From assembly GCF_030013595.1 (NCBI RefSeq), contig NZ_CP122772.1: a stretch of 64,000 nucleotides of DNA; one strand, given 5' to 3'. Shown one piece after another: positions 1-22,294 of this stretch (position 1 is the stretch's first letter; the number at the start of each line of letters is the position of its first letter). The stretch comes from Escherichia coli (GTDB lineage: Bacteria > Pseudomonadota > Gammaproteobacteria > Enterobacterales > Enterobacteriaceae). Position numbers and translations under genes: made by a program. Under the pieces are notes generated by a model that saw only the letters and a list, made by a program, of their open reading frames with translations, was not told the origin of the DNA and did not search any database.

Positions 1-1254
1 GTGTCAGGGGGGCTGCTGACGCCGTCCTACCGTAATCAGCTGGCGTTCCTTGATATCTACGGGGACGGGATGGGCAACACCAACTACAACATGGCGGTGA
101 CCGGCACTTCCGGAGCCGGTAAAACCGGTCTGGTTCAGCCTATTCTGCGCAGCGTGCTGGACTCCGGTGGTATCGCCTGGGTGTTTGACATGGGGGACGG
201 CTACAAGTCGTTCTGTGAGAACGTCGGCGGGACATACCTGGACGGCAAGTCACTCAAATTCAACCCGTTTGCCAATATTTCCAACATCAATGAATCCGGG
301 GAACGTATCCGCGATCAGCTGGCGGTACTGGCCAGCCCCAACGGGACGCTGGATGAAGTCCACCACAGCCTGCTGTTGCGCGGGGTTCAGGAGGCCTGGG
401 AAGAACATAAGGAAAAAGCCCGTATTGACCATGTTGTCCAGAAGCTGACGGCTATTCGCGAGCATGATAAATACCAGAAGTCGCCGGGTATCACCAACCG
501 GCTGGATGAGATTATCGAACTACTCGGGAAGTACTGCTCCTGGGGGATTTACGGCGAATATTTCAACAGCAACGAGCCGTCACTGACTGACGATGCCCGC
601 TTTATCGTCCTGGAGCTGGGCGGCCTGCAGGACAAGCCTGATCTGCTGGTTGCGGTGATGTTCTCCCTCATCATCTACATCGAGGACAAGATGTACCGCA
701 CGCCGCGCAGCCTGAAGAAGTGCTGCACCATCGACGAAGGCTGGAAGCTGCTCAACTTCAAAAATGAGAAGGTCGGTCAGTTCATTGAGACCGGCTACCG
801 CACTGTGCGACGTCACCGTGGCGCGTTCATCACCATAAGTCAGAACATCAAGGACTTTGATGCCGATGATGCCTCCGGCGCAGCAAAAGCAGCCTGGGGT
901 AACTCTGCCTTCAAGGTGGTTCTCAAGCAGGATGCGTCGGAATTCAAACAGTACAACCAGAACCGCCCCAACCAGTTCAGTGAGCTGGAGCGCAGCGTTA
1001 TCTCCAAATTCGGGGATGCCAAAGACCAGTGGTTCTCCTCCTTTATGCTGCGCATCAACGATACCTGCAGTTTCCATCGTCTCTTTGTCGATCCGCTCAG
1101 TCGCGCGATGTTCAGTTCAAAGGGCGATGACTTCGAATTTATCCGCCAGTGCCGGGAACAGAACATGGATATCCATGACGCCGTCTACCTGCTGGCACAA
1201 CGCAACTTCCCTGATGAGATGCGCGAACTGGAAGCGCTTGCGGAGGCAGCATGA
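1..1254 (+). CDS. traC: TraC conjugative ATPase (VirB4-like), C-terminal ~417 aa; 5' end lies outside the window
   Basis: Frame open from base 1; translation resembles the F TraC C-terminal region; followed by trbI-traW-traU in F order. Confidence 0.85.
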   Translation: MSGGLLTPSYRNQLAFLDIYGDGMGNTNYNMAVTGTSGAGKTGLVQPILRSVLDSGGIAWVFDMGDGYKSFCENVGGTYLDGKSLKFNPFANISNINESGERIRDQLAVLASPNGTLDEVHHSLLLRGVQEAWEEHKEKARIDHVVQKLTAIREHDKYQKSPGITNRLDEIIELLGKYCSWGIYGEYFNSNEPSLTDDARFIVLELGGLQDKPDLLVAVMFSLIIYIEDKMYRTPRSLKKCCTIDEGWKLLNFKNEKVGQFIETGYRTVRRHRGAFITISQNIKDFDADDASGAAKAAWGNSAFKVVLKQDASEFKQYNQNRPNQFSELERSVISKFGDAKDQWFSSFMLRINDTCSFHRLFVDPLSRAMFSSKGDDFEFIRQCREQNMDIHDAVYLLAQRNFPDEMRELEALAEAA

Positions 1255-1715
1255 CCACAGAGCAAAACCTTAACTCAGCACTGTCTGAATCCTCTGTTTC
1301 TGCTGAGTCAGTCAGAAAAGGGGGGAATATTAATGTTAAAGGGAGCCGGCGGGAGCAACGCCGTCGCCGTTGTCTGCGTAATCTGCTGCTGGTCGCTGCC
1401 ACTGTTCTGTGCGTTAACGCGGCGGTCACGTCTCTGCTGATTAGCTGGCGTACACCGACGGTTGTGTCTTTTGATATGAAGGGCACGGTCGATCAGTTCA
1501 CCGACCAGGCGGGGGCACAGTCCCTGAATGAGGCGCAGATGAGCGTCCTGACAGAACGCTTTATGCAGACACTTAGCACAGAACTTCAGGAATACCAGCG
1601 CGATCACAACGTCCTTATCCTGGTGACGCCGGCGGTGGTCAGCGGTGCGGCAGACATTACCGGTGAAATTCAGTCTGCAGTGGCACAAAAAATGGCCGCC
1701 GGAGGGGGGCAGTAA
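1251..1715 (+). CDS. trbI: TrbI-like inner-membrane transfer protein
   Basis: 154-aa ORF with a single hydrophobic segment and a C-terminal '...ILVTPAVVSGAADITGEIQ' region resembling F TrbI; 4-bp overlap with traC stop; F gene order. Confidence 0.75.
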   Translation: MTTEQNLNSALSESSVSAESVRKGGNINVKGSRREQRRRRCLRNLLLVAATVLCVNAAVTSLLISWRTPTVVSFDMKGTVDQFTDQAGAQSLNEAQMSVLTERFMQTLSTELQEYQRDHNVLILVTPAVVSGAADITGEIQSAVAQKMAAGGGQ

Positions 1716-2350
1716 TGTACCGACGTCTGCTCATACTGCTTGCCCTGTCCGGCATGGTACAGGCAAAAAACCTGGGTACATGGGGGGAGATGTACCCCAT
1801 TGCCGAGCAGGACATGCTGACCACCATTCAGACCCGGCTGAAAGCAATGGAGGCCAGTGGTGAGATGGGCCGGGAGCAGGAAGCATTCAAACAGCGTGTC
1901 ATAGAAAACACCCTGCGTCCTAAGCCGGTGGAAGGGCTGACGTTGGCGCAGGAAAACACCACGCACTATATCGATCCATCGCTGACGGTCAGTGAAGATC
2001 TGAAAGACCATCAGGGGCGGGTGTTTGCCCGTAAGGGACAGGTGATTAATCCGCTTGATACGGTGCCCTTTACCGACACGCTGTATTTTATTGATGCGGA
2101 TAATCCGCAGCAGCTGGCGTGGATGAAGAAGCAGAATCCCGGCACGCTGACGTACCGCGTCATACTGGTCAATGGGGATGTTCGAGAAGCGACCAATGCC
2201 CTGAATACACGCATTTACTTCGATCAGGATGGCTCGCTCAGCCGGAAGTTTGAACTCAAAACCATCCCGGCCCGTGTGACGCTGGCGGAAGATCGTCGCC
2301 GTCTGCGGGTGGATTCGTTTGCACTGGATGTGCCGGAGGTGAAGCCATGA
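1715..2350 (+). CDS. traW: TraW pilus assembly protein
   Basis: 211-aa ORF with signal peptide; position between trbI and traU; translational coupling (overlapping start/stop). Confidence 0.8.
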   Translation: MYRRLLILLALSGMVQAKNLGTWGEMYPIAEQDMLTTIQTRLKAMEASGEMGREQEAFKQRVIENTLRPKPVEGLTLAQENTTHYIDPSLTVSEDLKDHQGRVFARKGQVINPLDTVPFTDTLYFIDADNPQQLAWMKKQNPGTLTYRVILVNGDVREATNALNTRIYFDQDGSLSRKFELKTIPARVTLAEDRRRLRVDSFALDVPEVKP

Positions 2351-20982: not shown

Positions 20983-20999
20983 ATCAGGGAGAGGAACGT

Positions 21000-21566
21000 A
21001 TGTTTATTGCATTTATTATTATTGTCATTCTTCTGGGCGGGTTTGTGCTCCTGCTCCGTCAGGCCGGTCGTGCAGCGCATCCACTTCTGCAGTCATTGCG
21101 GTCAAGGGGTATACGGCCTGGCGCAGCAGAGCTGTTGCTGTGCAGCAGGCCATCATTTGTCAGTGCCGGCCGGTTGATGACCGAACGGGAGCAGCGCTTT
21201 CTGCGCCGGCTGGACAGGGTGACTGATACCCGCCACTGGCGTCTGTGTCCACAGGTTCGGGTGGCCGATATTGTCAGAGTGGCGCCCGACCGTAAGTCCG
21301 GCAGCCGTGAATGGTGGCAGTTATTTCGCCTGGTGTCACAGTGGCACTGCGATGTGGTTATCACGGACCGTGCCGGGCGCATCATTGCAGCGGTTGAGCT
21401 GGACGACCGGTCTCATCAGGAACCGAAACGTCAGCGGCGTGACCTGCTGCTGGAAGAGGTGCTGAAACAGGCGGGTATCCCGCTGTTGCGTGGCGATAAT
21501 GAACAGCAACTGGCGGCGCGTGTCAGGGCGCACCTTTGCGCACAGCGTCCGGAGGCCGCAGCATGA
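21000..21566 (+). CDS. conserved plasmid hypothetical protein (N-terminal TM helix)
   Basis: ATG at 21000 (MFIAFIIIVILLGGFVLLL...); sits between traI and traX; stop overlaps the traX start. Confidence 0.55.
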   Translation: MFIAFIIIVILLGGFVLLLRQAGRAAHPLLQSLRSRGIRPGAAELLLCSRPSFVSAGRLMTEREQRFLRRLDRVTDTRHWRLCPQVRVADIVRVAPDRKSGSREWWQLFRLVSQWHCDVVITDRAGRIIAAVELDDRSHQEPKRQRRDLLLEEVLKQAGIPLLRGDNEQQLAARVRAHLCAQRPEAAA

Positions 21567-22294
21567 ATCAGGGTAAATCCGTTGCTGTGCAACCTGTCAG
21601 GCCGGTCCTGAATTTCTCCGCGCTGCAGCGCGATGTCATCCGGATGGTGGCGTTTGTGGCGATGGTGGGGGACCACATAGCTACTGCCTTTCAGCTGGAT
21701 ATGCCCTTACTGAACATGGGCGGGCGCTGTGCTTTCCCCCTGTTTGCGCTGGTCTGTGGCTGCAACATGGCGGGTAAAACCTTACGTCAGCACAGCCTGA
21801 ACCGCCTGTGGCTGATGGCACTCCTGGCACAGCCGGGTTACTGGCTGGCCTTCCGGGATGTCGGCCTTGCGTGGTGGCAACTGAATATCCTGTTCACCTT
21901 TGCTGTTGTCATGCAGGTGGCTCTTTTCCTGCAGTCTGCTACTGCCCGTAATGGTGTTGCGGCCTTCACGGTACTGATGGGGTATACACCGTTCAGTTCT
22001 GCCAGCTACGGCATCCCCGGTCTGCTGATGCTTGCCGGAGCGCTGCTGGTCTGGCAGGTCAGGGGCACGCTGCGTCCAGCTCTGTTTGCTGTCTGGCTGT
22101 TGCTGGTTGCCCTGCTTAATGCCCGACACGGTGATGTGATGATGTTTTCCGGCGTGATTCTGACACTGACGGTGCTGTTCTGTGTCCACGGGCTGGTACC
22201 GGCTTCCGGACGACGTCTGCAGGCAGGACGCTGGTTTGCGCCAGCGTATGCCATTCATCTGTTTTTTATTGGCTTTCTGGTCAGAGTTCTCTGA
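21563..22294 (+). CDS. traX: TraX F-pilin N-acetylase
   Basis: Polytopic membrane protein with ...RLWLMALLAQPGYWLAFRDVGLAWWQL... resembling F TraX; ATG 21563 overlaps the upstream stop. Confidence 0.85.
   Translation: MNQGKSVAVQPVRPVLNFSALQRDVIRMVAFVAMVGDHIATAFQLDMPLLNMGGRCAFPLFALVCGCNMAGKTLRQHSLNRLWLMALLAQPGYWLAFRDVGLAWWQLNILFTFAVVMQVALFLQSATARNGVAAFTVLMGYTPFSSASYGIPGLLMLAGALLVWQVRGTLRPALFAVWLLLVALLNARHGDVMMFSGVILTLTVLFCVHGLVPASGRRLQAGRWFAPAYAIHLFFIGFLVRVL

Follow-up and report, generated by a model that had tools for sequence, protein, structure and literature searches.

A known system close to the locus analysed here is the transfer region of pED208 (F0lac, IncFV; AF411480), cited in PMC5102898 from Lu et al. 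2002 (Plasmid 48:24); pED208 also serves as a standard model in structural work on the F pilus and the F-type type IV secretion system (T4SS) (PMC7555446). Fernandez-Lopez et al. (2016, PMC5102898) assigned the IncFV arrangement to MOBF12 group C, with pUMNF18 (strain UMNF18) as its named prototype, and described for this group a single-operon architecture, a regulator (TraJV) that bears the TraJ name without being related to F TraJ, and no recognisable FinO. Kishida et al. (2024, PMC10939261) found no discernible traQ in pED208 and assigned the uncharacterised orfX1-3 to the outer-membrane-complex cluster and orfX4 to the F-specific one. In that study, pED208 pilin accumulated despite deletion of the F-specific cluster (including orfX4) or of the outer-membrane-complex cluster, accumulation of F pilin in the pED208 background required F TraQ, and about 85% of the F-like plasmids lacking exactly one tra gene lacked traQ. 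Here we analyse a 64-kb stretch of Escherichia coli DNA (contig NZ_CP122772.1), hereafter the window, to which coordinates refer unless another record is named; positions 1-22294 carry part of a transfer (tra) operon. We are very nearly certain that this part is the distal two thirds of a pED208-type (IncFV-type, MOBF12 group C) F-like transfer operon, located on a porcine F18-fimbriae/alpha-hemolysin virulence plasmid.

Genes were called from an open reading frame (ORF) map combined with NCBIfam profile scans at curated cut-offs, with Pfam added for the ORFs. The order from 1 to 22294 is traC(partial)-trbI-traW-traU-ORF-trbC-traN-traF-trbB-traH-traG-traS-traT-traD-traI-ORF-traX, in which the named genes were recognised by NCBIfam, mostly above the curated cut-off, and traS by its position. 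A tblastn search with the 122-amino-acid product of the first unnamed ORF led to the transfer region of pED208 (NZ_AF411480.1), whose annotated order, traC-trbI-traW-traU-hypothetical-trbC-traN-traF-trbB-traH-traG-traS-traT-traD-traI-DUF2726-traX, is that of the window gene for gene. Both ORFs foreign to F, namely orfX4 between traU and trbC and the DUF2726 gene between traI and traX, are common to the window and pED208, and neither has trbE, trbA, artA, traQ, trbJ or trbF, which is the gene content and order of MOBF12 group C. The protein comparisons tell the same story: the Tra proteins of the window are 70-98% identical to those of pED208 (TraS excepted, 33%) versus 36-82% to those of F, and in pairwise alignment the relaxase TraI shares 90.5% identity with its pED208 counterpart over 1767 amino acids versus 45% with F TraI. 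No recognisable FinO is present in the 64 kb either. At the nucleotide level, all 22,294 bases align at 99.0% identity with porcine enterotoxigenic E. coli (ETEC) plasmids, among them NZ_AGTD01000004.1 (strain UMNF18) and NZ_CP122805.1, and coverage of the 22.3-kb region reaches 80% or more in 135 PLSDB records. The initial annotation, made from the sequence alone, had proposed this gene order with tightly coupled junctions, an extra ORF between traU and trbC and an F-like sublineage other than that of F. All of these points held: adjacent genes overlap by 1-4 nt or lie 1-23 nt apart, except at traS/traT (167 nt) and traT/traD (141 nt), the extra ORF is a homologue of pED208 orfX4 (74.6% identity), and the sublineage is that of pED208/F0lac, with the same order in pED208 and 99% identity to a plasmid of UMNF18. 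The two wider gaps contain no credible small ORF.

All genes of the operon lie on the plus strand. The window opens with the C-terminal 417 codons of traC (1-1254), encoding a VirB4-type ATPase that matches profile positions 454-866 of 874 of NF010278 (E=6e-227; being truncated, it scores under the cut-off despite this E value) and is 98% identical to residues 449-863 of pED208 TraC and 65% to F TraC. It is followed by trbI (1251-1715; TIGR02744, 130.9 bits, cut-off 83.65; 71% identity to pED208), traW (1715-2350; NF010298, 297.6 bits, cut-off 249; 91%) and traU (2347-3333; NF010297, 616.9 bits; 94%, and 70% to F). Beyond the orfX4 homologue (3344-3712) come trbC (3709-4389; TIGR02742, 109.9 bits, cut-off 66.45; 79% over residues 1-198) and traN, the mating-pair stabilisation adhesin with its hypervariable central region (4319-6157; NF009016, 651.8 bits, cut-off 648; 74% overall). 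The next genes are traF (6154-6933; TIGR02739, 327.6 bits; 89%), trbB for a thiol-disulfide isomerase (6957-7559; NF010288, 212.8 bits, cut-off 199; 80%), traH (7565-8926; NF010279, 733.7 bits; 93%) and traG, which joins a VirB6-like N-terminal part to a C-terminal part for mating-pair stabilisation and entry exclusion (8928-11810; NF010295, 1188 bits; 85%). Together, TraU, TraW, TraF, TraH, TraN, TrbC and TrbI, the VirB4-type TraC and the VirB6-like TraG make up the MPF_F signature in the NCBIfam scan.

The ORF at the traS position (11820-12392) encodes a 190-amino-acid protein of entry-exclusion type with several hydrophobic segments. Aligned with pED208 TraS, it shows 33% identity (186 columns, E=1e-20); it matches no NCBIfam or Pfam model and shows no similarity to F or R100 TraS. 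In the relative NZ_CP122805.1, traS carries no annotation, and 1-nt indels relative to the window occur between traG and traD. Downstream lie traT, for the surface exclusion/serum resistance lipoprotein (12560-13297; NF010291, 465.6 bits, cut-off 445; 93% to pED208, 82% to F), traD, for the type IV coupling protein (13439-15688; TIGR02759, 707.9 bits; 84% and 49%), and traI, for the MOBF relaxase/helicase (15688-20982; TIGR02760, 1183 bits; MobF NF041492). After the DUF2726 ORF (21000-21566) the operon ends with traX, for the pilin N-acetylase (21563-22294; TIGR02755, 362.5 bits; 86% to pED208, 36% to F). A strong 9-bp GC-rich hairpin stands 3' of traX at 22354-22378; it was rejected as a plus-strand intrinsic terminator, its T-run being on the minus strand only.

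The small genes of the F map were searched for with the TrbE, TrbA, ArtA, TraQ, TrbJ, TrbF and FinO proteins annotated in F (NC_002483) and R100 (NC_002134). In six frames over the whole 64 kb, tblastn gave a best E of 0.03, while core Tra proteins in the same search matched at E 1e-24 to 0. A six-frame NCBIfam scan of 5950-7750, the site of these genes in F, returned TraN, TraF, TrbB and TraH only. Four short plus-strand ORFs that overlap annotated genes there (6147-6347, 6170-6337, 6878-7036 and 7456-7644) were considered as cryptic traQ, trbE or trbJ and rejected, as they have no Pfam match. For FinO, the R100 protein gave a best tblastn E of 0.48 over the 64 kb, and the ORFs after traX contain no FinO/ProQ domain in Pfam. 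Relocation of the missing genes elsewhere in the 64 kb was likewise rejected on the negative F and R100 searches. Thus the absences listed in the initial annotation (trbE, trbA/artA, traQ, trbJ, trbF and finO) hold for the 64 kb; short homologues in alternative frames, which it had named as the finding that would overturn its observation, did not turn up, so the observation stands.

It is very improbable that the missing genes are present after all, too diverged to be recognised or hidden in alternative frames, with, for example, the orfX4 homologue replacing TraQ. Small membrane proteins do diverge fast, as the window TraS illustrates, and one unassigned ORF does sit inside the F-specific cluster. 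However, where F has these genes the gaps are at most 23 nt, which leaves no intergenic room, and the six-frame hidden Markov model scans of 5950-7750 found nothing. Moreover, TraQ is an inner-membrane protein (PMC7555446), whereas the orfX4 homologue has no hydrophobic segment, and deletion of the cluster containing orfX4 did not lower the pilin level in pED208; the pED208 cluster deletions therefore argue against a TraQ-like role for orfX4 (PMC10939261). Less credible still is a degenerate deletion derivative of a classical F/R100-type operon that lost its small genes and is not self-transmissible: at least one tra gene, traQ more often than any other, is indeed missing from many F-like plasmids in databases (PMC10939261), and traC is frameshifted in the closest relative (NZ_CP122805.1), but the proteins are too far from those of F (36-82% identity) for a recent derivative, all 17 operon ORFs within the window are unbroken and their junctions coupled, and the identical layout is found in pED208, which is proficient in transfer, and in over 130 plasmids.

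Some observations weigh against our assignment to a pED208-type operon, or narrow it. The start of traC is upstream of the window, and the proximal genes (traM to traV, with the pilin gene traA and the regulator) are seen only in the 99% relative NZ_CP122805.1; oriT likewise lies upstream. In that relative, the ORF after traM matches a helix-turn-helix protein of pED208 weakly (27%, E=3e-6) and F TraJ not at all, and two small ORFs present in pED208 between traR and traV have no counterpart. Its traC annotation (6010-8600 of NZ_CP122805.1) records a frameshift, the frame changing near 7341-7359 of that record, a few bases from the point where the window starts, so that transfer proficiency of the window plasmid is putative. 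The absence of traQ and finO applies to the 64-kb window only and not to the rest of the plasmid. Finally, the replicon is not IncFV: the replication genes of the window are IncFII-type, with a CopA antisense RNA at 24693-24783 (minus strand, 89 bits) and repA, the matching region of a relative is annotated with IncFII repA and a second replication initiator, and PLSDB types the replicons of the relatives as IncFIA/IncFIC. "IncFV" is here the type of the tra region only.

We next consider the two ORFs that F lacks at these positions. The orfX4 homologue has an AGGAG motif 7 nt upstream of its ATG, and its stop codon overlaps the trbC start (ATGA). It belongs to no Pfam or NCBIfam family and shows no hydrophobic segment in a Kyte-Doolittle scan. 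A tblastn search found homologues in 222 PLSDB records, most of them conjugative. The homologues are annotated throughout as "hypothetical protein" and come from Enterobacteriaceae. An AlphaFold2 model built with 19 homologues is confident and all-helical, with six helices (predicted local distance difference test, pLDDT, 80.7). Foldseek against the PDB gave no match at E<=0.001, the best (E=3.1) belonging to non-significant helical-bundle matches. The protein is thus predicted to be small, soluble, all-helical and cytoplasmic. The R100 ORF located between traU and trbC proved unrelated (hhalign probability 0.07%). In the centre of the orfX4 homologue, residues 43-102 share 47% identity with a 180-amino-acid hypothetical protein (NZ_KY270850.1, 137637-138179) whose gene adjoins a DUF2726 gene in the post-tra region, before repA, of Klebsiella and Enterobacter F-like plasmids. 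The occurrence of an orfX4 segment beside DUF2726 in the Klebsiella plasmids would fit a common accessory module better than a structural part of the T4SS.

The DUF2726 ORF encodes 188 amino acids with an N-terminal hydrophobic segment (PF10881, E=1.3e-24), and its stop overlaps the traX start. It is 85% identical to the pED208 protein encoded at the same position and 50% identical to the DUF2726 protein that R100 encodes between finO and repA. Both ORFs look like accessory plasmid genes that, in this lineage, lie inside the operon. It is a speculative and rather doubtful idea that one or both have a function peculiar to the lineage, in conjugation or in becoming established in the recipient, for example as a substitute for a missing F function, a transferred effector or an anti-defence factor.

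Differences from pED208 are concentrated at a few spots. In trbC, a 1-nt deletion just before the stop/traN start (ATGA; window 4290-4389) removes the usual stop codon; TrbC is extended by 23 codons at its C-terminus, the overlap with traN grows to 71 nt, and the same 226-amino-acid product is annotated in the 99% relative. TraN identity falls to 14-38% at alignment columns ~150-300, TraG identity to ~25% over the two final 50-column blocks (the last ~60-100 residues), and TraS stands at 33% between neighbours at 85-93%. On this evidence, divergence in TraN, TraG and TraS would be the usual pattern of receptor and entry-exclusion specificity swaps, and the window plasmid and pED208 probably differ in both exclusion and receptor specificity.

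By homology with F and pED208, the operon encodes an F-type conjugation machine. TraC would energise pilus assembly, as its homologues suggest, with TrbI, TraW, TraU, TrbC, TraF, TrbB and TraH as the putative F-specific periplasmic assembly set. TraN and TraG would stabilise mating pairs, TraS and TraT would exclude entry from like donors, TraD would couple the TraI-bound DNA strand to the channel, and TraX would acetylate the pilin. Since pED208 is experimentally transfer- and pilus-proficient, we infer that this gene set may suffice for piliation and transfer, and the published pED208 work suggests that the pilin would mature without TraQ. Indeed, accumulation of pED208 pilin after either cluster deletion points to insertion without a dedicated chaperone, or to a factor encoded elsewhere. 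Without FinO, fertility would presumably be controlled by TraJV, a regulator specific to this lineage and encoded upstream of the window. The initial annotation had suggested that pilin maturation and fertility control have different requirements here, which is supported by the absence of traQ from pED208 (PMC10939261) and of FinO from group C (PMC5102898). Both absences are already published for this lineage, and the field has already framed the two questions that they raise, namely how these plasmids keep their pilin stable with no TraQ and repress transfer with no FinO.

The remainder of the window belongs to a virulence plasmid. The F18 fimbrial operon (47695-53146, plus strand: fedA, the usher gene fedC, fedD, fedE and fedF) and the alpha-hemolysin genes (58230-64000, minus strand: hlyD, hlyB and hlyA, which runs off the window end) are 99.9% identical to those of the porcine plasmid p15ODTXV, and the replicon is therefore that of a porcine oedema-disease/ETEC virulence plasmid. 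Directly after traX, a 94-amino-acid ORF (22484-22768, plus strand) is 59% identical to the product of an ANR-family regulator gene located after finO in R100; opposite lies a 58-bit match to the Rfam antisense RNA AS-pc02 (22593-22759, minus strand). The 331-amino-acid ORF that follows (22874-23869) has one hydrophobic segment, matches neither Pfam nor NCBIfam and is called hypothetical in relatives. Three IS91-family transposase copies (27648-28880, minus strand; 34244-35476, plus strand; 44490-45722, minus strand), each a 410-amino-acid ORF with an adjacent 121-amino-acid ORF, flank genes for toxin-antitoxin systems, replication and partition. Next to an IS91 copy lies a full-length match to ColE1-type RNAI (29319-29418, minus strand, 73 bits), which suggests a captured ColE1-like origin remnant. 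Three matches to AgrB-type antitoxin small RNAs are found at 31293-31380, 31933-32017 and 43781-43868.

Compared with known systems, the operon stands apart from the classical F and R100 plasmids of MOBF12 group A. They share the MPF_F machinery and the MOBF12 relaxase, and the common genes keep the same relative order. However, F/R100 carry trbE, trbA, artA, traQ, trbJ and trbF, and finO after traX, all of which the window lacks; they have no orfX4-type ORF, R100 having an unrelated ORF between traU and trbC; and their DUF2726 gene lies beyond finO instead of between traI and traX. Thus the traQ, finO and trbA/artA cluster and the high F/R100 identity of group A are all missing, identity to F running from 36% (TraX), 45% (TraI) and 49% (TraD) to 82% (TraT). 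An identity this low therefore indicates an old sister lineage, a distant branch and not a deletion derivative, and this lineage lacks the small genes ancestrally rather than through a lesion. "Streamlined", the word used in the initial annotation, fails on the same identities if taken to mean recent loss from F. The observed layout is real but ordinary and already known, from pED208 in 2002, from MOBF12 group C in 2016 and from genetic dissection in 2021-2024. With pED208, which was found in Salmonella (Salmonella Typhi, IncFV), the window shares the transfer operon, whereas its host is E. coli and its replicon IncFII-type. With the pUMNF18-type plasmids of porcine ETEC, the tra region shares its annotation and differs by ~1% in sequence, whereas the cargo outside tra differs, the window having the F18 fed and hly genes. 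The tra type has some practical relevance, since virulence plasmids of porcine and human ETEC use it as their vehicle.

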